A DNA stretch of 13,781 bases from a virus (IMGVR_UViG_2531839665_000026:1-13781); one strand, 5' to 3'. Positions 449-13,781 are shown, numbered from the stretch's first letter. Numbers and translations: made by a program. Notes: generated by a model from the sequence alone, not told the origin.

Positions 449-2200
449 ATGATTCAGGACGCTTTTGTGCGCCAGCGTGCGCGGCAACTTTACTGGCAGG
501 GTTATCCGCCCGCAGAAATATCACGTCTGATGGGAATAAACCCGAACACGATTTATGCGTGGAAAAAACGCGACCAGTGGGATGAAACGCCACCCGTGCA
601 GCGTGTCACGCAGTCCATCGATGCGCGCCTCATCCAGCTCACTGAAAAACAGAATAAAACAGGTGGTGACTTCAAGGAAATAGACCTGCTGACCCGGCAG
701 CTTAAAAAACTGCATGATGGCCAGCCGGATGCGACGGCCACAGGAAAGAAAGGCCGGGCGAAAAAACTCAAAAATCATTTCACGCCGGAACAGATTGCCG
801 CACTGCGGGAAAAAATCATCAGCAGGCTGGAGTGGCATCAGCGGGGCTGGTTTGACTCCCTGACCCTTTGCAGGGAAGCCGGGATACGTAACAGGATGAT
901 CCTGAAATCCCGACAGATTGGGGCGACCTGGTATTTTGCACAGGAAGCACTGCTGATGGCGCTGCGTGACGATGTGGCGCAACCTTACCAGCGTAACCAG
1001 ATTTTTTTGTCTGCGTCGCGTCGTCAGGCGTTCCAGTTTAAAAGCATTATTCAGAAGGCCGCGGCTGAAGTTGATGTGGAGCTGAAAGGGGGCGATAAAA
1101 TCATCCTCTCAAACGGCGCAGAGCTGCATTTTCTCGGCACTTCTGCTGCGTCGGCACAGTCCTATACGGGCAATTTTTATTTTGATGAATTTTTCTGGGT
1201 CAGTCGCTTTGCCGAACTGCGCAAGGTGGCTGGCGCTATGGCAACCCTCAGCGGACTGCGGCGCACCTACTTCTCCACGCCATCCACCGAAACGCACGAG
1301 GCATACGCCTACTGGAACGGCGACCGCTGGAACGAGAAAAAGGCCTCGCATAAACGCCAGCGTTTTTCTGTGGACTGGAAAACGCTGCATAACGGGCTTA
1401 TCTGCCCTGACCGGACGTGGCGGCAAATTGTCACGCTGGAAGATGTGGTTAATCACGGCTGGAAACACACCGATATTGACGAAATCCGTGATGAAAACAC
1501 CGAAGACGAGTTCCTCAATCTCTATATGTGTGAGTTTGTTCGCGAAGGGGAATCGGCATTTAACCTGAATATCCTGATTGGCTGCGGTGTTGACGGATAC
1601 GACGACTGGAAAGACTGGAAACCTTTTGCTCCCCGCCCGATGGGGAATCGTCCGGTATGGATTGGGTATGACGCAAACGGCAGCAGTGGCAACGGGGACA
1701 GCGGCGCTGTGTCCGTGGTGGTTCCTCCGGCTGTTCCTGGTGGCCGTTTTCGAACGGTGGAGACGCGACGCGTTCAGGGGCTGGAGTTTGAAGAACAGGC
1801 CAGAGTCATTGAAGAGTTCACGTGTCGCTACAACGTGGAACACATCGGCATTGATGTGACGGGCGGGAACGGGGAGGCTGTTTATCAGATAGTGAAACGG
1901 TTTTTCCCTGCCGCTATTCCGTACACCTTCACGCTGTCATCCAAACGGTCGCTGGTACTGAAAATGCAGCAAATAATGCGTGCCGGACGGTGGGAATACG
2001 ATCGCGCCGAACGCGAGCTGGTCGCGGCCTTTAACGCCGTGCGTAAGGTGAAAACACCGGGTGGCTTTATCACTTACGAAACGGACCGCGCGAGGGGGAT
2101 CAGCCACGGCGACCTTGCGTGGGCAACCATGCTTGCTGTCATTAACGAACCAATTGGCGGCGAAGGAGAAAAACGAGCGTTTCACGGTTATGGAGTTCTG
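449..2200 (+). CDS. P: Terminase large (ATPase/nuclease) subunit gpP-like; no in-frame stop, frame continues into the portal
   Basis: N-terminal HTH-like segment (YWQGYPPAEISRLMGINPNTIYAWKKRDQWDE), Walker A-like KSRQIGATWYF, Walker B-like FYFDEFFW, and acidic nuclease-domain motifs (WIGYDANGSSGNGDSGAVSVV, HGDLAWATMLAV). The 584 codons before the internal ATG at 2201 compare with about 590 aa for P2 gpP. AGGGGG lies 4 nt before the ATG at 449. Confidence 0.85.
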
Positions 2201-3247
2201 ATGAGCAGAAAAAATAAAAAAGTGCGCATGAGTTCACGCATTGATCTCGCTGATGCGCTCAGGAAAGAATCATCGCTCAGTGCATTCACATTTGATGGTC
2301 CTTATCGCCTGACCGGGCATGACCTGCTGGACAATATGTACTGTGCTGATAACGGGCGGTGGTATGAAACCCCGGTGGACTGGTACGGTCTGGCAAGAGC
2401 CGCCCGGCAAACGTCCTGGCATCAGTCTGCGCTTTACTTTAAGCGCAATGTATTGCTCGGTTGCTACATCCCGCACCCGCTGCTTTCCCGGCAGGATTTC
2501 TCGGCGCTGGCGCTGGACTGGTTTGTGTTCGGTAACGCATTCCTTGAGCTTCGGAGCAATATGCTCGGCGAACCACTTAAATTACGGCACGCACTGGCGA
2601 AATACATGCGACGCGGAAGCGATCTTGAATCATGGTGGTATGTGCAGGATGGCAAGGACGCGTTTCAGTTTCGCCCTGGCAAAGTGTGCCACCTGATGAA
2701 TCCGGACATTAACCAGGAAATTTACGGCATGCCGGAATATCTCGGCGCATTACTCTCGGCCAGCCTGTCTCATTCGGCGGACATGTTCAGAAAACTGTAT
2801 TACGACAATGGATCCCACGCCGGGTGCATCATCTACATCGGTGCAGCGCAGGTAAACCGCGAAAGCATGGACTCCCTGAAAGAAACGCTACAGGGTGCGC
2901 GTGGTGGTGGTGCGTTTAAAAACGTGCTCATTCATGCGCCCAACGGGGGCAAAGAGGGGGTGCAAATTTTGCCGTTCCAGCAGATCACCGCAAAGGATGA
3001 GTTCATGAATGTTAAGGCGGCATCCCGTGATGATGTGCTGGCTGCGCACCGCGTTCCGCCGCAACTGATGGGGGCGATGCCGGGTGAAAAAAGTGCGTTT
3101 GGTGATGTGGAGAAGGCCGCGCGGGTTTACGCAATTAACGAGCTGATGCCCGTCATGGAGGCCATGAAGCATATCAATGACTGGCTTGGCGAAGAGGTGA
3201 TCCGATTTAACCCTTACGCACTGCTGGACACCCAGCCCACATCCTGA
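2201..3247 (+). CDS. Q: Portal protein gpQ-like (348 aa if initiated at the internal ATG at 2201)
   Basis: Follows P on the same strand as in P2. ATG at 2201 is preceded by GGAG at 2192-2195 (5-nt spacer). Length of 348 aa compares with about 344 aa for P2 gpQ. It has a basic N-terminus (MSRKNKKVRMSSR) followed by a conserved-looking core. Stop codon TGA at 3245-3247. Confidence 0.7.
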   Translation: MSRKNKKVRMSSRIDLADALRKESSLSAFTFDGPYRLTGHDLLDNMYCADNGRWYETPVDWYGLARAARQTSWHQSALYFKRNVLLGCYIPHPLLSRQDFSALALDWFVFGNAFLELRSNMLGEPLKLRHALAKYMRRGSDLESWWYVQDGKDAFQFRPGKVCHLMNPDINQEIYGMPEYLGALLSASLSHSADMFRKLYYDNGSHAGCIIYIGAAQVNRESMDSLKETLQGARGGGAFKNVLIHAPNGGKEGVQILPFQQITAKDEFMNVKAASRDDVLAAHRVPPQLMGAMPGEKSAFGDVEKAARVYAINELMPVMEAMKHINDWLGEEVIRFNPYALLDTQPTS

Positions 3248-3272
3248 CGCGCTTCGCTTGTCTGCTGCTTCG

Positions 3273-3297
3273 CCGGGGCATAAAAAATTTATGCCCC
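3273..3297. other. Perfect 11-bp-stem hairpin (CGGGGCATAAA / TTTATGCCCCG, loop AAA) 26 nt after the Q stop
   Basis: Inverted repeat read directly. There is no U tract on either side, so it is not a canonical intrinsic terminator. It could be an RNA-stabilising stem or a protein-binding palindrome in the cos-proximal region. Confidence 0.6.
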
Positions 3298-3575
3298 GAC
3301 TCTCCAGCTCCTGTATCAATCAGATAATTTCACGACGTCTTCCAGCTTATCGCCATCATCGACGGTCAGGCTCTTACGCAATCCCACTGCGCTGACTGCA
3401 TGTTCTCGCCGCCTCAGTGCGATTTTGACGGCCTTATCTGCTACCCCATCAAATCAAAAGTCCTCACGTCTTTTTCATGCTCAGCGTGAGAAATACAGCC
3501 ATTCTGTTGTGTCGCTGCGACATCGTTCAGGGGATGCTATTTACCCCCTGAAACGCGGGCTGTTCCCCCGTCACC

Positions 3576-3601
3576 TGCGCGCAGAAAAAGCGCGTTTTTT
3601 T
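3576..3601 (+). terminator. Intrinsic terminator for the P-Q transcript
   Basis: GC stem CGCGC (3578-3582) / GCGCG (3590-3594), loop AGAAAAA, followed by T7 (3595-3601). Confidence 0.6.
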
Positions 3602-3609
3602 GTGCACGC

Positions 3610-3628
3610 ACGGATCCTTGACGGATCC
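3610..3628. repeat. Direct repeat ACGGATCC x2 separated by 3 bp
   Basis: ACGGATCC at 3610-3617 and 3621-3628, immediately after the T-run of the plus-strand terminator. Confidence 0.5.
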
Positions 3629-3671
3629 AACTGCCACGCGGGCCGGAAGGGCAAAAATTCGTTCAAAAAAA

Positions 3672-3698
3672 TTGTGCAAATTTGTGCACTATTGTGCA
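3672..3698. repeat. Three helically phased direct repeats TTGTGCA at exact 10-bp spacing
   Basis: TTGTGCA at 3672-3678, 3682-3688 and 3692-3698. The middle copy contains the palindrome GTGCAC. They lie in the non-coding cos-expected region between Q and the cargo operon. Confidence 0.6.
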
Positions 3699-3705
3699 TT
3701 GAAAT

Positions 3706-3728
3706 AAACGCCCTGGAAGAGGGCGTTT
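3706..3728 (-). terminator. Stem-loop terminator ending the minus-strand cargo operon (partly bidirectional)
   Basis: AAACGCCCT (3706-3714) / AGGGCGTTT (3720-3728), loop GGAAG, 10 nt past the stop of the 112-aa gene. On the minus-strand RNA the stem is followed by AUUUC. Confidence 0.6.
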
Positions 3729-3738
3729 TGGCTCATTT

Positions 3739-4077
3739 CTATAGCTTTGATGCAGGCTGGGCTAGGTCTCCTTTGATGCCAGTGTTTACAACCTGACAAG
3801 CCTCTTTGAGTACCCAGTCAACAGCGTCTTTCCATGCTCCGGTTTCGGCTGGCGGATTCTCACGCTTTACCAGTTCATAGAATCGTACTGCTCTAACCAG
3901 TCCATCTGACGGTTTTGCCTGTAGTGCAGCCTGAGCTATGCGGTATGCCTGGAGCATACGGGCGTCGTTGATATCCATTCCGAACGGAATTTCTGATGAT
4001 TGTGATTCTGCATCTTCAAGCCTGGCAATTTCTTTACGTAAAAAGTATTTCAACTCTTGTTTTTGTTTTCTGTTCAT
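3739..4077 (-). CDS. Hypothetical protein, 112 aa, last gene of the cargo operon
   Basis: ORF with AGGGAA-type SD 6 nt upstream of ATG at 4077. Charged and probably helical ([26 protein letters not shown]...). No family recognised. AT-rich relative to the phage backbone. Confidence 0.55.
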
Positions 4078-4405
4078 GCGTTTTTCCCTTTTTGTCTGTC
4101 ACTTCTCTCCTGATAATTTCATTGCACAAATCCACGCACTCATTGCAGATGCAAACAGACGGTCCGGCAATCACCTTTGTGACTTCGTACTGAGATTTAT
4201 TGCAGAAGCTGCAATAAATCGTCTCCTCGCCTGAAGTCCATGTTTTGCTGGTTTCGCCAGACATCAGTTGTTTGAGGTCTTTTTCACGACGAAGAACTAT
4301 CTGGCCACATTCAGCTATTTTTTGGATGTTGACATTTTCTTCTTTCGCCAGCGCTTCCATCCGCTCAATCAGTCGCTGCGCTTTTTCTCTGTCAATGTGT
4401 TGCAT
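4034..4405 (-). CDS. Small protein (123 aa) with a ClpX-type C4 zinc-ribbon domain
   Basis: Residues around 62-100, [39 protein letters not shown], align almost position for position with the N-terminal zinc-binding domain of E. coli ClpX as I recall it ([40 protein letters not shown]). GGGGG SD lies 5 nt before ATG at 4405. The last 44 nt overlap the next gene. Confidence 0.65.
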
Positions 4406-4439
4406 TGTGTCCCCCTTGTTTATGTTCCCGGATTAAAGT

Positions 4440-4463
4440 CATCAGGGCGGATGCGCCCTGATG
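4440..4463. other. Intra-operon perfect hairpin between the parR-like and zinc-ribbon genes
   Basis: CATCAGGGCG (4440-4449) / CGCCCTGATG (4454-4463), loop GATG. A third copy of CGCCCTGAT follows at 4484-4492. Confidence 0.5.
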
Positions 4464-4468
4464 TTGTG

Positions 4469-4780
4469 TTATTCGGGAAATAACGCCCTGATATTTCCGG
4501 CCATCCGACTGGTTATCTGTGTGGTTGGTACTGGCTGTGACGCGGGGCGTTCTGTCCTGGTTTGTGTCACTGATAACGCCTCATCGTCAGCCCATGCAGC
4601 CAGTCGGTAAGCCTCTGCCGGATTCATTTTCAGAAGTGCCAGCCCGGCCAGAAAAGCCACACGTTGGCCGCTTTTGCGGGCTTCTGGTGTAAGGCTGTCC
4701 AGCCAGGCGCATGCTTCGCCTTCGTTCTTGACGGCGGCGGGCTTCAGATAGAAACTTATCCGTCTGGTTGGTGTCGTCAT
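4469..4780 (-). CDS. parR: ParR-like small DNA-binding protein (103 aa from internal ATG)
   Basis: Translation from ATG at 4780 (MTTPTRRISFYLKPAAVKNEGEACAWLDSLTPEARKSGQRVAFLAGLALLKMNP...NIRALFPE) parallels plasmid R1 ParR as I recall it (..RTIAFKLNP...CDTLDSIPQGERSRLNRAALTAGLALYRQDP...NILRSLFPKE). GGAG lies 7 nt upstream, inside the end of parM. There is a 4-nt gap after the parM stop. The upstream 45 codons of the ORF-track entry overlap parM and are not used. Confidence 0.65.
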   Translation of the reverse strand: MTTPTRRISFYLKPAAVKNEGEACAWLDSLTPEARKSGQRVAFLAGLALLKMNPAEAYRLAAWADDEALSVTQTRTERPASQPVPTTQITSRMAGNIRALFPE

Positions 4781-4784
4781 TGGT

Positions 4785-5744
4785 TTACTCCTTGTCCATT
4801 GCGTACAGCCCATTAACCAGAGCAAACTGTGGCACCCCGTCCGCGATGAAAGTCGCATTAACTCCGCAGGCTTCGCGGATAGCGGGTGCCGCAATCTCCG
4901 CCCCGCCACCGACAACCATCACCCGCCCGTAACCCGAAAAACCCGCCAGCGCGCGGATCACTCGTTGTTTCAGTGTTTCTTCCTTTTCACGAATAACCGC
5001 CATCAGGCTGTCGTAATGCGCGTCATTGTGGATGTGCTGGCGCAGCCAGGCTTCATCGTGGCGATGTTCGATAATGGTATTGGCGATATGGTGACTGGTA
5101 CGCATACCGTTAGTGGCCATCACCGACAGTACGGCATCGGCTATCAGGGAAACGCCTACGTGTGGATCGCAAAACACCTGGCTGATACCTGCCAGTTGTC
5201 CCTGGACCTTTGCCACATCCAGCGTGGTTCCGCCTAAATCCACAATCAGCAGGGATTCAAACGGACTCATGTCAGCCAGAGCCTTAAAGCCAGCCGGAAT
5301 GGATTCAGGCATAACCCGCACGTTACGGATAGTGAATGCTTCGCCGTTCTGGTACTCCACCGGGCGCATAACGTTCGCTTTTTTGCGGTTGATGTTGGCC
5401 ATGTCCGGCTGTGCGTTTGTGTCGAAATACTCGCTCAGTGGCAGGGTGACAACCACATCCACCTCCTGTGGCGTGATGCCTGATTTGACCAGTGCGTGAT
5501 GAATGGCAATGACATTCACATCGCTGTATTGGTATTGCGTGTCGGTCGTCTGGACAAAGCGATCGCTGACCGGATCAAAACCGTAGCGCACGCCATCAAG
5601 CATGTAGTTCGCGGGCTGCGTGCCACTGAACGGCGCAGACCATTCCGACTTGAAGCTGTTCGGGCTGATGGCGTTGCGGCGTTCGCCGTTCTCAGTCCAT
5701 GCCAGCTTGATGTTGGTGGAGCCGTCGTCGATACAAATTTTCAT
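4785..5744 (-). CDS. parM: ParM/StbA-like actin-fold segregation ATPase (319 aa)
   Basis: Alignable along its whole length to plasmid R1 ParM (StbA) as I recall it. Shared blocks include IDDGSTNIKL, YSDVNVIAIHHAL, VMPESIPAG, DLGGTTLD and VVGGGAE. Length of 319 aa compares with about 320 aa for R1 ParM. Confidence 0.8.
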   Translation of the reverse strand: MKICIDDGSTNIKLAWTENGERRNAISPNSFKSEWSAPFSGTQPANYMLDGVRYGFDPVSDRFVQTTDTQYQYSDVNVIAIHHALVKSGITPQEVDVVVTLPLSEYFDTNAQPDMANINRKKANVMRPVEYQNGEAFTIRNVRVMPESIPAGFKALADMSPFESLLIVDLGGTTLDVAKVQGQLAGISQVFCDPHVGVSLIADAVLSVMATNGMRTSHHIANTIIEHRHDEAWLRQHIHNDAHYDSLMAVIREKEETLKQRVIRALAGFSGYGRVMVVGGGAEIAAPAIREACGVNATFIADGVPQFALVNGLYAMDKE

Positions 5745-5776
5745 GTCGCTTTTCCTTATGTTGATTAATTAATCGT

Positions 5777-5811
5777 TTACGGGATTCTGAAATCCCGTTT
5801 TTGCCTGTTTT
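5777..5811. repeat. Repeat R1: 35-bp hairpin-containing unit in the A/parM intergenic space (candidate parC-like site or promoter)
   Basis: TTACGGGATTCTGAAATCCCGTTTTTGCCTGTTTT. The internal stem ACGGGAT/ATCCCGT is followed by a T-rich tail on the plus strand. Confidence 0.6.
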
Positions 5812-5820
5812 GTGCGCGCT

Positions 5821-8643
5821 TCATATATCGCTGCGCGTTTTTTGCTCATTTACGGGATTCGTGAGTCCCGTTTCTGTCTGTTTTTTGTTTCCACTGGTCA
5901 GGCCACCCTGCAGCAGGTCTGCTTTGCGGTTGGCGCGTTCAGTGGTTTCACTGATTCTCTGTGCGTGCTCTGCGTCACGGATGGCGCGCAGCATGTCAGA
6001 AAGCACGGTAACGGGGGTTTTCATGGTGTTCTGGTCCTGCTGAAGTGTGGATGCCAGACGTGCGGCGGCTTCGGGGTCTGATGCCCCCAGTTGTTCCAGA
6101 TAGCTGGCGACCGGGTTATGGCGGATCTCTGTGCTGCTTACGCCGTGATTACGGCTCAGGCGCTGCCAGAGCTGCGTGATTCGGCTGTCCGGGCGGGTAT
6201 CCGGTTTGCGTACAATTTCAAATCCCTGCGGTGCAATGATGCTGCCGTCAACGTACAGGCTGCCGCCCCGTAGCAGGTGCTGCATCTGCTGTTCACCGAT
6301 ATGCAGGCCGAGAGATTCGGCAGACTCCCGCCATTCTTTAGCGAGTAATTCGTGGTTATCAGGCAAAGGCCGCTGCTGTTTGCGGCTCTGTGTCCAGCTC
6401 TGCATTTCATCACTGCTGTTTTTTGCCTGTTTGTCACGAAGCGAACGCATCAGCGCCCGGCGTTCGTGCCGTTTCAGTGAGCGCATCCATTCGTTCACTT
6501 CAACGCCATCAGGGAGCTGCGGCCACGGTGCTGGCTGTTCTTCCGGCTGTTCTGTCCCGTTGTTGTTCGTTTCCTGTACACGGGGACAGTTATTGCCACG
6601 AGTCCAAGGGGCGGCAGGGCCGCCCTGAAGGTCAAAACCATTTTCGCGGGCGCTGTCTTCCGCTTCCGGTTTACGTCTTACCAGCTTCCAGTTATCCGGA
6701 TGTGTGCACACACGGGAAGACTCCCCGATGAGTGGTGACCAGATCCCGTAAATCTGTACGCTCTGTTCGCCGTAATCGTTCAGCTCATCTGCGAGGTCGT
6801 AGGCGGTGCGAATCAGGTAGTCTTTGCGTGGAACAAGTACGCCGCCCTGTTTCTCAATGTAGGAGGCAAAACATCCGGCATCAGCGGCAGCGAGCACTGC
6901 ATCCATTGCGTCATCCTTCAGCCGTTGCGGGCCTTCCGGGTTGCGTGCCATCTGGCTGGCAAGGCGACGCAGTTCACGCCACACCTGACGGGAGGGGATG
7001 CCAAAGAACTGGAACTGGCGGACCCGGTGAAGGCGCGCCCAGCCAATGGCGCGTTCCACGCTCTCGGTCATTGATTTTCCGGTTTCGTGGTCAACGCGTG
7101 GTTTGCCTGTTTTCGGGTCGATGCCATCCACGGCGCGGCTGTCCAGGTTCTTTCCGATGTAGGTGGCGATGTAGCTGGTTGGCGTGCCTTTTGAGCCGTC
7201 GACGTACTCCGCTTTAAAACGCGGAGTTATGTCATCGCCCAGCTCGTGGCGGTCTTCCTGAATGGCAATATCGCAGACGTGGGACACGATGGTTTCAATC
7301 TCGTCCGGATGTGCAAAGACCATCATATGCCAGTGCACGGTGCCGTCATGGTGAGGCTCCACCGTGCGGATGCCATACCAGCGCAGGCCGTCGCGGTTCA
7401 GTTTCTTGCGGACCGCCGCAAAAAACGTGTTAACCAGGTAATCGCTGGAGTCGCGCATGGTGGCCCCGTTCCATTTGGGATTCGGATGACCGTTCTCTGT
7501 TGTAGCGTGGTATTTTGACGGGCAGGTGACAGTCAGAAACACCGCTCTGTCGCCACGGGCTTCGGCCAGAAGTTCCAGTCCCTTCATGGTGGCCATCATT
7601 TCTGCCTTACGGTGAACCGGGTTACTTACTCCCGCGTAATACACTGTCTCGAGATCAATCGTGAACCCGTCTTCATTTTCCAGCATGAAACTTTTCAGGA
7701 AATCGCGTGTTTTCTCGCGCTGTGCGCGAAACTCGCTTAACGCGTCCTGGCTCAGATAGGGTGATGTTTTTCTGGAAACCAGACAGGCGGCGCGGAGTTG
7801 TTCTTCTCTCCACTCGCAACGTAACAGCCACAATTTGCGTTTCCACCAGTCCGCACAGGTCAGGCGAAGGATTGCACCCGGCAGCAGTTCTGTGTCCGGT
7901 TCGTTCCTCCGGTCTTTGTCTGTTGTCAGTGCGTCATAATGTGGAGGCATGGTGTGCAGATGTAACGCCATGCGAGCCAGCAGCTGATACGCCTTCAGCG
8001 TTATATCCATGGTCAGCTCGCCATCGGTCGCGCCAAAGCCATCGCAGAGTTTTTCGAAGGTGCTGCTGAACATTGCCGCCGTCATGACGGCCAGTGTCTG
8101 TATCTGGTGTTTGTTGAGCTGCGGCAGGTAAAGTAAATCGTCCAGACGTTCACGTCCGGCAAGGGAGCGATAACCCGGAGTCAGCCAGCGTCCGTCAGTG
8201 CGGGCCAGACGTTCCAATATTTTGCGCAGGGTTCCGCGTGCATAGCGTTCCGCCTGCCAGCTCTTTTTGCCTTTCCGGCGATCGGCTTCCTGCTTTTTGC
8301 GCAGGAAGGAGAGGTGGCGAATAAGCGGATCGCGCAGATAGGACGGCAGCAGGCGCAGCGAGGCCATGGCTTCATCCACCGCACCGCGTGCCTGTTTTCT
8401 GGCGTCTCTGGCCAGTGTGATGGTTTTGTCCTGCTTTTCCTGTGCGTCCAGGCTTTTATTAATCAGGTTGCCCAGCGGCGTTGCGGAGAACGCCGCATCA
8501 GCCATTTCCTGGCGTCGCTCGTTCTCTACCCGGTAAGCATCCAGCCAGGAGGAAAGCGCGGATTCAGGTGCGGGGATCCCCGTACCTTCACGCCCTACTG
8601 CGTGGCGCGGTTGTTGCCAGTCCCTGATGTACTCTGTCGTCAT
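5821..8643 (-). CDS. A: Rolling-circle replication initiator gpA-like (HUH endonuclease), 940 aa
   Basis: Long minus-strand ORF with an HUH-type motif (TVHWHMMVF) and paired tyrosines (TSYIATYIGK), as in the P2 gene A protein. It sits downstream of cox and the small early genes, as in P2. It is longer than P2 gpA (about 761 aa) because of a C-terminal extension. Confidence 0.85.
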   Translation of the reverse strand: MTTEYIRDWQQPRHAVGREGTGIPAPESALSSWLDAYRVENERRQEMADAAFSATPLGNLINKSLDAQEKQDKTITLARDARKQARGAVDEAMASLRLLPSYLRDPLIRHLSFLRKKQEADRRKGKKSWQAERYARGTLRKILERLARTDGRWLTPGYRSLAGRERLDDLLYLPQLNKHQIQTLAVMTAAMFSSTFEKLCDGFGATDGELTMDITLKAYQLLARMALHLHTMPPHYDALTTDKDRRNEPDTELLPGAILRLTCADWWKRKLWLLRCEWREEQLRAACLVSRKTSPYLSQDALSEFRAQREKTRDFLKSFMLENEDGFTIDLETVYYAGVSNPVHRKAEMMATMKGLELLAEARGDRAVFLTVTCPSKYHATTENGHPNPKWNGATMRDSSDYLVNTFFAAVRKKLNRDGLRWYGIRTVEPHHDGTVHWHMMVFAHPDEIETIVSHVCDIAIQEDRHELGDDITPRFKAEYVDGSKGTPTSYIATYIGKNLDSRAVDGIDPKTGKPRVDHETGKSMTESVERAIGWARLHRVRQFQFFGIPSRQVWRELRRLASQMARNPEGPQRLKDDAMDAVLAAADAGCFASYIEKQGGVLVPRKDYLIRTAYDLADELNDYGEQSVQIYGIWSPLIGESSRVCTHPDNWKLVRRKPEAEDSARENGFDLQGGPAAPWTRGNNCPRVQETNNNGTEQPEEQPAPWPQLPDGVEVNEWMRSLKRHERRALMRSLRDKQAKNSSDEMQSWTQSRKQQRPLPDNHELLAKEWRESAESLGLHIGEQQMQHLLRGGSLYVDGSIIAPQGFEIVRKPDTRPDSRITQLWQRLSRNHGVSSTEIRHNPVASYLEQLGASDPEAAARLASTLQQDQNTMKTPVTVLSDMLRAIRDAEHAQRISETTERANRKADLLQGGLTSGNKKQTETGLTNPVNEQKTRSDI
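5849..5883. repeat. Repeat R2: second copy of the 35-bp unit, lying inside the last codons of gene A
   Basis: TTACGGGATTCGTGAGTCCCGTTTCTGTCTGTTTT. 29 of 35 positions match R1, with most differences in the hairpin loop. It sits 72 bp to the right of R1. Confidence 0.6.
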
Positions 8644-11958: not shown

Positions 11959-12246
11959 CTAAAGTCCCAGCCACAACAACCATGCGTCGCGGCGTTCTTT
12001 CGGTTGCTCAAAAAACGCTTTGCGCATGCCTTCGTTAAATGCTGGCAGATATACCCAGTTTTCTGATGCACGCGTCTTTACTGAACCTGGTTTCACAAAG
12101 TCAATTGTTGGTAGCTTTGCTGCGTCAATCATGGTTCTGACTGTGGATTCCTTGCGGCCGATCATCTTGGCGAATAGTTGATATGGCACCGCTTCAAGTG
12201 GATATGGTGCTACCTGAATGAACCCCCCAAGCTCTGATTCGCTCAT
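11959..12246 (-). CDS. cox: Cox-like excisionase / early-operon regulator (95 aa)
   Basis: Matches P2 Cox as I recall it (VPYQLFAKMIGRKESTVRTMIDAAKLPTIDF...ENWVYLPAFNEGMRKAFFEQPKERRDAWLLWLGL against ...IPYQEFAKLIGKSTGAVRRMIDKGKLPVIDM...EYWVYLPAWNNGLKLAYESRPKEIRDGWLMWLGL). AGGGAGA SD. Divergent from C. Confidence 0.85.
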   Translation of the reverse strand: MSESELGGFIQVAPYPLEAVPYQLFAKMIGRKESTVRTMIDAAKLPTIDFVKPGSVKTRASENWVYLPAFNEGMRKAFFEQPKERRDAWLLWLGL

Positions 12247-12320
12247 TGTGGTAATCTCCCTAATTCGTTCGAATGGCTCAAAATGGCTTATATCGGCTTA
12301 TTTGAGTGTTTTTATGTTTG

Positions 12321-12366
12321 TGCCCGATGTGGCATGTTGTGATGGAGGACATGCCCGATATGGCAT
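12321..12366. promoter_or_regulatory. Putative immunity operator: two 15-bp direct repeats in the cox/C switch region
   Basis: TGCCCGATGTGGCAT (12321-12335) and TGCCCGATATGGCAT (12352-12366), 31 bp apart. The second overlaps the likely C start. A consensus TTGACA on the minus strand at 12370-12375 abuts the second repeat. P2 C is known to bind a pair of direct repeats at the early promoter. Confidence 0.5.
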
Positions 12367-12680
12367 CTTTGTCAAGCATGGGTGAAAAATTTCGCCTGAT
12401 TCGTGAAGCAGAAGGTATGACCCGCCAGGAGTTTGCGGATTGTGTTGGGCTGCCTTATGGGACGGTAACTAACTATGAGGTGAGGGGGAAGCAAGTAACA
12501 GAGGGTGCCTTACTTAAGGTTACGAAACACCCTAAATTTAAGAAGTATGCTTATTGGTTATCAACAGATGAAACGATGCCGGAGGTCGGGCAAATTTCTC
12601 CGGCTCTCTCTCTTGATGGTTCCTGCAATTCGGAGGGAGATCGCGTTTCAACCGAAACAATCCAAAAATTATCCCGCTGA
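12360..12680 (+). CDS. C: C repressor-like immunity repressor (106 aa from ATG at 12360)
   Basis: MGEKFRLIREAEGMTRQEFADCVGLPYGTVTNYE...KFKKYAYWLSTDETMPEVGQISPALS parallels P2 C as I recall it (ISEKIVLMRKSEYLSRQQLADLTGVPYGTLSYYE...QFTKYTLWFMTNQIAPESGQIAPALA). The start is ambiguous between 12342, 12360 and 12378; the ORF-track start at 12306 is unlikely. Confidence 0.8.
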   Translation: MASLSSMGEKFRLIREAEGMTRQEFADCVGLPYGTVTNYEVRGKQVTEGALLKVTKHPKFKKYAYWLSTDETMPEVGQISPALSLDGSCNSEGDRVSTETIQKLSR

Positions 12681-12776
12681 GGCCAGAAAACTGGTTAGAC
12701 CTGCTTTTTGTCTGGTCTGATTATTGCTGGAAAGAGGCTGGAGAAATTGTAGAGCGGTTCATTGGAGGGCTTCGTA

Positions 12777-13781
12777 ATGTCGATTAAGAAGCTCGAAGAT
12801 GGTCGTTATTTGCTGGACATCAGGCCGAACGGACGCAAGGGAAAGCGCGTGCGTAAGGTATTTGACAAAAAATCGGTAGCGGTGGCCACTGAACGCTACA
12901 TCATGGCGAACGCTGAAAAGCGGGAATATATACAGGGCTACCGTGATCGTCGAACGCTAAATGATTTGCTTGAGTTGTGGTGGATGTATCACGGCCAGCA
13001 CAGGCGTAAGGCGGAAGAAGACCGAAAACAACTGCGCAACATAATCAATGAGCTTGGCGCTGATATGCAGGCTGTGGATCTTGATAAGCTGAAAATTATC
13101 GCGTGGCGTTCTCAAAAGATAGCTGATGGATTGAAACCGTCATCTGCTAACAGGTACATGAATCGGTTATCCGGAATGTTTACCGTGCTGAAAAAAATAG
13201 GTCTTTGGGATGCAGAACATCCAGTAAGGGGAATTTCTATTCTTTATGTATCTCCACGAGAAATGGCGTTCCTGTCACAGAAGGAAGTGGCGCTATTGCT
13301 CGATACACTGGAGGGCGACTACTGGCGTGTTGCGCTTTTGTGTTTAAGCACAGGGGCGCGCTGGAGTGAAGCTTGTAAGCTTCGTGGTGAACAGATAGTT
13401 CATAACCGTGTAACGTTTCTTGAAACCAAAAATGGCCGGAAGAGAACAGTGCCAATTTCGCAGGCAGTTTGTGAGGCGATCAAAACCAGAGAAACAGGCG
13501 GCTTGTTTGAGGTGAAGTACCGGGAATTCTGCCTGGCGCTGAAAAGAGTTAAGCCCGATTTACCAAAAGGCCAGGCTGCACATGTGCTGCGGCATACGTT
13601 CGCCAGCCATTTTGTGATGAACGGAGGAAACATTATTGCGCTTCAGAAGATTCTTGGTCACGCAACCATTCAGCAAACAATGGCATATGCGCATTTTGCA
13701 CCGGATTACCTGCAGGATGCGGTGGCCCTTAATCCGCTGAAAGGTGGCGTAAGTGTCCACGCAGTGTCCACGGGGGATTAA
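12777..13781 (+). CDS. int: P2-type tyrosine integrase (334 aa)
   Basis: From ATG at 12777 (GGAGGG SD with 7-nt spacer): MSIKKLEDGRYLLDIRPNGRKGKRVRKVFDKKS..., with the catalytic region ...LRHTFASHF...LGHATIQQTMAYAHFAPDYLQDAVALNP. This closely parallels P2 Int as I recall it. Stop codon at 13779-13781, the window edge. Confidence 0.9.
   Translation: MSIKKLEDGRYLLDIRPNGRKGKRVRKVFDKKSVAVATERYIMANAEKREYIQGYRDRRTLNDLLELWWMYHGQHRRKAEEDRKQLRNIINELGADMQAVDLDKLKIIAWRSQKIADGLKPSSANRYMNRLSGMFTVLKKIGLWDAEHPVRGISILYVSPREMAFLSQKEVALLLDTLEGDYWRVALLCLSTGARWSEACKLRGEQIVHNRVTFLETKNGRKRTVPISQAVCEAIKTRETGGLFEVKYREFCLALKRVKPDLPKGQAAHVLRHTFASHFVMNGGNIIALQKILGHATIQQTMAYAHFAPDYLQDAVALNPLKGGVSVHAVSTGD

Follow-up and report, generated by a model that had tools for sequence, protein, structure and literature searches.

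Why should a phage that integrates into the host chromosome carry a partition system of the kind found on low-copy plasmids? The question is raised by IMGVR_UViG_2531839665_000026:1-13781, a stretch of viral DNA of 13,781 nucleotides (the window), in which the genes of an actin-like ATPase, parM, and of its adaptor, parR, occupy positions 4469 to 5744 on the minus strand. According to Pfam, the window belongs to a temperate phage of the P2 family with integrase (int), the repressor C, Cox and the replication protein gpA. Escherichia phage P88 (Peduoviridae, Xuanwuvirus) matched positions 3200-5900 with 98.3% identity, and judged by its sequence the window is a P88-like (Xuanwuvirus) prophage of Escherichia coli. 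An earlier interpretation of the same DNA (the sequence-only reading) had proposed a ParM/ParR pair on an integrase-bearing P2-like phage, and both the pair and the carrier were confirmed. Our preferred answer, with a probability of about one half, is that the cassette is a functional type II (ParMRC) segregation system of the P88-like replication module that would stabilise a transient episome.

The gene parM (4785-5744, minus strand) encodes a 319-residue actin-like ATPase of the R1 ParM/StbA family. The N-terminal half of the protein matched Pfam StbA_N (PF06406, 3.5e-82, residues 1-157), the C-terminal half matched the ParM C-terminal domain (PF21523, 6.7e-68, residues 159-316), and residues 2-316 could be aligned with structures of R1 ParM (PDB 1MWK and others, E = 1.8e-91). 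No competing actin-fold family was obtained, Hsp70 and sugar kinases being absent from the Pfam list; the next matches, ALP_N, Hydantoinase_A and MutL, were below their cut-offs. Identity was 46% to StbA of IncF, 53% to ParM of IncI1/B/O and 47% to StbA of the phage-plasmid D6. The nucleotide-binding motifs (D6 D7 G8 S9 T10, E147, D169-x-G171-G172-T173-T174 and G279-G280-G281-A282) were invariant in an alignment with three plasmid and phage-plasmid ParMs and in the HMMER alignment to 1MWK. In R1 numbering, E147 corresponds to the catalytic glutamate E148 and the phosphate-2 motif DxGGTT holds D170; DDGST is the phosphate-1 and GGGA the adenosine motif. Selection and alleles were analysed in a sample of 86 P88-like loci. 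ParM was at least 97% identical across the sample and was intact at 319 residues in 85 of the loci, and the ratio of nonsynonymous to synonymous substitution rates (dN/dS) was 0.057 over 71 distinct alleles. parM is under strong purifying selection.

The second gene, parR (4469-4780, minus strand), starts 5 nucleotides past the parM stop codon and is preceded by the ribosome-binding site AAGGAG. Its 103-residue product matched PF10784 (Plasmid_stab_B, 1.6e-24), the same Pfam family as R1-type ParR, with which it shares a predicted N-terminal ribbon-helix-helix domain (residues ~1-65). The domain is followed by a linker that is hypervariable (~66-92) and by a conserved tail that ends the protein with GNIRALFPE. 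A PDB search with ParR by itself gave no match, and the structure of pB171 ParR (2JD3, 2.8e-13) was reached only by a profile that included the window protein. The sequence-only reading had aligned the protein with R1 ParR up to and including the C terminus, NIRALFPE against NILRSLFPKE. The relationship stood for the N-terminal domain, where residues 1-61 were 33% identical to R1-type StbB by BLASTP (E = 2e-8). The match of the tails did not, as NILRSLFPKE is internal in the R1 protein (residues 75-84 of 117) and was not aligned with NIRALFPE by MAFFT or BLASTP. The C terminus of the window protein aligns with that of IncI-type ParR, NNIKNLFPDDE, and both end in an NIxxLFP(D/E) tail.

Two ParR alleles of 103 and 104 residues were distinguished. 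Overall identity between them is ~50%; residues 1-14 are the same in both, whereas the linkers cannot be aligned. The dN/dS was 0.14 for the N-terminal domain, 0.5-0.7 for the linker and 0.034 for the C-terminal tail (allele A), and the C-terminal motif NI(R/Q)xxFP(E/K/D) was kept in all full-length variants of both alleles. Such a pattern is expected for a working adaptor, and the two proteins together are a bona fide pair of the R1 family. The idea that differing alleles serve to avoid incompatibility between co-resident prophages was rejected; among three informative genome pairs, the alleles differed in one and were the same in two.

The order of the cassette, repeats-parM-parR, is that of the ParMRC systems of R1, IncF, IncI1/B/O and IncL plasmids, whose ParMs are 46-53% identical to the window protein over the full length and contain all nucleotide-binding motifs. 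Upstream of parM are two 42-nucleotide direct repeats (family D1) that are 81% identical and spaced by 73 bp. Repeat 1 (5846-5887, minus strand) comprises an A/C-rich stretch and a 20-bp palindrome at 5852-5871 and overlaps the last codons of gpA. Repeat 2 (5773-5814, minus strand), with the palindrome ACGGGATTTCAGAATCCCGT at 5779-5798, is located within the 76-bp spacer between gpA and parM. The palindrome common to both has the form ACGGGAyT....AATCCCGT; neither the window nor the complete P88 genome contained a further copy of the motif. Its core, GGGAT-N-ATCC, was retained in nearly all of 59 distinct upstream variants. The repeats are a plausible candidate for parC, on indirect evidence.

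The limits of the cassette were visible in its relatives. In one locus with P88 backbone (IMGVR_UViG_3300029762_000213, positions 3059-6000), gpA has been swapped, and homology to P88 restarts at precisely the left border of repeat 1. The same boundary was seen in a second locus (L051), where the 3' end of gpA is divergent. Because homology restarts at repeat 1 in both cases, the two repeats travel with parMR as a unit. The swapped gpA has 768 residues and is 45% identical to gpA of the phage pENTAS02 and 31% identical to that of P88; this locus also contains an extra open reading frame (ORF) of 159 codons. On the other side, a perfect G+C-rich hairpin with 10-bp arms (4440-4463) is found just past the parR stop codon, with a T-rich tail on the plus strand only. 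It is a terminator-like element and likely the 3' boundary of the cassette. Close to parR, homology among the relatives stops; from there to the portal gene they carry different cargo, 989 to 4167 bp in length.

Directly upstream of parM, gpA (5821-8643, minus strand) encodes a rolling-circle replication endonuclease of 940 residues (PF05840 Phage_GPA, 3.8e-128). A consensus scan of the minus strand detected no sigma-70-like promoter in the gpA-parM interval and no autoregulated promoter within the candidate parC. A minus-strand terminator-like site between the two genes was not found either. Because neither a promoter nor a minus-strand terminator was found behind gpA, parMR probably closes the early lytic operon, and co-transcription with gpA is probable. 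In P2 lysogens, gpA is repressed by C.

The linkage to gpA extends to the population level. Among 5426 complete E. coli genomes, the parC-parMR locus was present in 1304 (24%) at 1452 places, 1450 of them chromosomal and 2 on plasmids. P88-type gpA was found at 1621 places in 1433 genomes (any match; 1323 at a coverage of at least 80%). Because the places of gpA and parMRC agree almost one to one, the cassette is nearly core to the replication module; it travels with gpA. The P88-type terminase was found at 1249 places in 1115 genomes (any match; 1095 at a coverage of at least 80%), so that the parMRC places exceed those of the terminase by ~200. Remnant prophages without head genes retain gpA-parMR. 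One of them, in the O157:H7 strain 1130, has kept int, the early genes, gpA and parMR, and its head genes were removed by insertion sequence elements.

In a scan of one genome per species, linkage of gpA and parM was not found outside Escherichia, Salmonella and Citrobacter; the linked matches included E. albertii, Salmonella and a likely contaminant. The latter is a 226-kb contig assigned to 'Vagococcus sp. WN89Y' (NZ_JBQPOM010000071.1). It contains a P88-like prophage with a ParM that shares 97% identity with that of E. coli, and contamination or mislabelling of the assembly is the most likely explanation. All other matches of the scan were plasmid-type ParMs with at most 53% identity over the full protein and without gpA. 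The phage ParMs form a clade of their own, with no true plasmid relative above ~53% identity. Closer matches in plasmid records were limited to prophage-bearing records and one partial match with 61% identity in its best segment (43% over 159 residues by tblastn), and no phage-type ParR was found on true plasmids. Because neither protein has close relatives on true plasmids, the cassette is an old resident of the phage lineage and not a recent capture.

These observations suggest a mechanism for the stabilisation of a transient episome. As the last genes of the early lytic operon, directly behind gpA, parMR would be made when gpA is made. This would be the case once the phage has infected a cell, or once a prophage has been derepressed and excised, and the genome would then be an extrachromosomal circle. 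ParR dimers would bind both palindrome-containing repeats upstream of parM, and the conserved C-terminal tail of ParR would capture filaments of ATP-ParM. The growing filaments would push sister circles apart, so that replicating phage circles would spread through the cell and reach both daughters. Loss or clumping of the circles ahead of integration or packaging would thereby be avoided. A fitness pay-off for the phage might follow. The stage stabilised in this way would be transient, not a permanent plasmid state.

An experimental precedent is the SrpMRC system of the SXT/R391 integrative and conjugative elements (ICEs), which is encoded beside mobility genes and expressed on induction only (Carraro et al. 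2015, PMC4489591). Its srpC site, in the 5' untranslated region upstream of the ATPase gene, is made up of four direct and inverted repeats. In the presence of the system, the excised circle, which the relaxase TraI replicates from oriT, is lost less often (PMC4489591). Both SrpMRC and the window cassette are thus actin-type partition loci on normally integrated elements, with few repeats as centromere or candidate centromere. The phage of the window is integrated and has a rolling-circle initiator (gpA) adjacent to the cassette, for which neither an own promoter nor an intervening terminator was found; expression may likewise be confined to induction. The analogy would be one of function, not of homology. 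SrpM and SrpR are no more than distant relatives of R1 ParM and ParR, and SrpR has no recognisable ParR homology, whereas the window proteins are close members of the R1 family. The hosts differ as well, an ICE in one case and a tailed phage in the other. A relative shows the expected behaviour: the P2-like remnant Sp13 of strain Sakai has been reported to excise, circularise and amplify ~30-fold on treatment with mitomycin C (PMC2669165). A matching remnant is the element of strain 1130 described above, with int, early region, gpA and parMR; strain 1130 is the one in which parMR was observed. The partition of a transient episome is favoured because of the gpA-linked expression context and the precedents of SrpMRC and of the prophage system AlpAC, discussed below. 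Of the possibilities listed by the sequence-only reading, an episome, if transient, or DNA positioning would be the most plausible, in either case in the replicative phase.

Several observations weigh against this interpretation or set the cassette apart from R1-type systems. Compared with R1-type ParMRC, which resides on low-copy plasmids, the window cassette is carried by an integrating phage, and to our knowledge most P2-like phages manage without such a partition system. The candidate parC consists of only two 42-nucleotide units with a palindromic core, compared with ten 11-bp iterons in R1 parC, and no sequence similarity between the two sites was found. No promoter was detected in the candidate centromere, in contrast to R1-type systems; the scan was a simple consensus scan, and a weak or atypical promoter is possible. 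Nucleotide diversity of the repeats was 0.02-0.10, compared with 0.054 at third codon positions of parM. Extra conservation of the repeats was therefore rejected, and because their diversity resembles the neutral level, conservation of the repeats proves nothing by itself. The repeats are also terminator-like on the plus strand. The two ParR alleles do not differ in the repeat variants that accompany them; since the alleles in addition share residues 1-14, a comparison of ParR alleles with palindromes for covariation is powerless. Finally, the repeat pair may be a leftover duplication of the 3' end of gpA. The two repeats encode similar peptides, KQTETGLTNPVNE being the tail of gpA and KQAKTGFQNPVND lying one frame off, past the gpA stop codon. 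The leader RNA gave a folding score of z = -3.5, as expected from the presence of two similar palindromes.

The closest rival to partition of a transient episome is a role in phage replication. In Corynebacterium glutamicum, the prophage CGP3 requires AlpAC/alpS to replicate its DNA efficiently. Both genes are induced early, phage DNA in circular form is the target of the system, and the adaptor binds DNA upstream of its operon (Donovan et al. 2015, PMC4446434). Like the window pair, AlpAC combines an actin-like protein with a DNA-binding adaptor of an integrated prophage, and placement in an early operon is the same here, beside gpA. By analogy, the ParM filaments could tether replicating phage DNA at a favourable site, or transport it there, for efficient lytic replication or packaging, and inheritance by daughter cells would not be their purpose. 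P2-type packaging uses monomeric circles, which is why keeping circles apart could matter. However, AlpAC belongs to another Alp family and is found in another phylum, and its reported role is replication and transport, not segregation. AlpC is only distantly related to the window ParM, which at 46-53% identity is close to the R1 family with its known activity of bipolar pushing of paired centromeres. Most P2-like phages, moreover, replicate well without such a system. We regard a function of this type as possible, though on balance rather unlikely.

Unlikely, too, is a facultative phage-plasmid, in which the cassette would allow the prophage to be kept as a stable low-copy plasmid, for example when attB is missing or occupied. 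This was suggested by Rousset et al. 2022 (PMC9122126), and persistence as an episome had also been offered by the sequence-only reading. In PLSDB, a single circular 'plasmid' record of 34.4 kb (NZ_CP148288.1) is a complete P88-like phage. However, the record still contains int, and the P2-like phages pENTAS02 and pOSUCZ140_3, which have no parMR, were likewise deposited as circular plasmids. An enrichment of parMR among phage-sized 'plasmid' records was rejected on these grounds, with one clean circular P88-like record and parMR-free P2-like circles beside it. Of the other 'plasmid' records with parMR, one from Shigella is a linear fragment, and one from E. coli carries chromosomal genes. The phage-plasmid D6, 91 kb in size, is a circular plasmid prophage by type; its record gives a circular topology and P1-like gene notes. 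It employs the 47% identical ParM mentioned above, so that this P1-like element (MF356679) resembles the window in having a phage-borne ParM with a StbB-type ParR encoded downstream; its annotation itself mentions similarity to 'phage P88 StbA'. In contrast to D6, P88-like phages are integrase-encoding elements of 34-37 kb that are found in the integrated state. Plasmid prophages are extrachromosomal in lysogens and have plasmid-type replication control, usually without an integrase. The P88-like locus instead was chromosomal at all but 2 of its places in complete E. coli genomes, and the sole replication function found was gpA, in the early lytic operon (order cox..A). Neither a plasmid-type replicon nor an own promoter was detected with Pfam and the consensus scan. 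Stable episomal persistence is thus not favoured by the data. Equally doubtful is a partition-stabilised carrier state replicated by gpA, in which the episome would be kept for generations before integration or lysis, or in cells without attB. If it existed, it would constitute a third state beside lysis and integration, and P88-like phages, present in about one quarter of E. coli genomes, would be facultative phage-plasmids with rolling-circle replication.

The interval between gpA and the portal gene is a hotspot for defence systems in P2-like phages (PMC9122126), and the cassette is located in it. ParR and parC, or ParM, might accordingly hinder incoming plasmids or phages by incompatibility or as an antiviral system of the hotspot, as the sequence-only reading had considered with its exclusion of incoming replicons. 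The divergent ParR alleles and their fast-evolving linker would fit such a function. However, PADLOC gave no matches for ParM, ParR or the two proteins encoded downstream. A defence system of the P2 hotspot would be expected to match a known or candidate family and to be variable cargo, whereas the cassette forms the conserved edge of the hotspot, at a ratio of ~1:1 with gpA, and the variable cargo follows downstream. As in segregation systems, all motifs for polymerisation and ATPase activity are conserved, and so is the ParR tail. True plasmids, moreover, carry no close relative of the phage-type ParR with which it could interfere. We consider exclusion or defence very unlikely. That the cassette is a functionless passenger, a captured plasmid locus hitch-hiking with a phage family of which most members lack it and for which it has no known phenotype, is extremely improbable, because the selection data contradict it (dN/dS of parM as given above, with the ORF intact in 85 of 86 loci), because a divergence of at least 47% from every true plasmid ParM points to long residence in the phage lineage, and in view of the retention of the cassette despite the swap of gpA.

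The presence of parMR in P88-like phages as such was already known. The RefSeq record of P88 and the PGAP annotation of E. coli genomes label the locus 'plasmid segregation protein ParM' and 'partition protein', PHROGs includes it in families 691 and 2515, both called 'partition protein', and the idea of a facultative phage-plasmid or episome is in print (Rousset et al. 2022, PMC9122126). The sequence finding adds nothing to this annotation or to the remark published in 2022. Literature searches retrieved no functional study of the P88-like parMR locus. In view of the existing annotation, the occurrence in 24% of E. coli genomes and the precedents of SrpMRC and AlpAC, the statement that an integrating P2-like phage has no obvious need for such a system was too strong. 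If the transient circle is indeed stabilised, the principle of SrpMRC and AlpAC, in which a partition system of cytoskeletal type protects an integrating element once it is excised, would extend to tailed phages, and to a very common family among them. It would bear on the efficiency of lysogenisation, on prophage loss and on the boundary between phages and plasmids.

Among the remaining genes of the window, Pfam identified the integrase (12762-13781, plus strand), the C-type repressor (12306-12680, plus strand), Cox (11959-12246, minus strand, PF10743) and terminase plus portal (449-3247, plus strand). Within gpA, the Pfam GPA domain spans only residues 179-503 of 940. The final 300 codons of the gene seem to be fast-evolving, with a dN/dS of ~0.69 that should be read with caution as the alignment was not gap-aware. 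An A-run at 2169-2173 has five A in the window and four in P88 and in pZ1323PEC0009-2; it moves the end of the terminase into the portal frame and yields a single ORF of 932 codons (449-3247). The additional A is either a homopolymer sequencing error or a genuine frameshift of the prophage.

Directly after the par cassette, a gene at 4034-4405 (minus strand) encodes a stand-alone 123-residue protein with a ClpX C4 zinc finger (PF06689, 3.6e-16). It was found in only 17 of 70 related loci and had no PADLOC match. The protein could act as a decoy or modulator of adaptor or substrate binding by ClpX. The end of this gene is overlapped by a gene for a 112-residue protein of unknown function (3739-4077, minus strand). 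The 3' half of the latter (~3767-3909) showed ~90% DNA identity to segments of lambdoid phages, T7-like phages and ~90-kb plasmids and is a widely shared mobile gene fragment.

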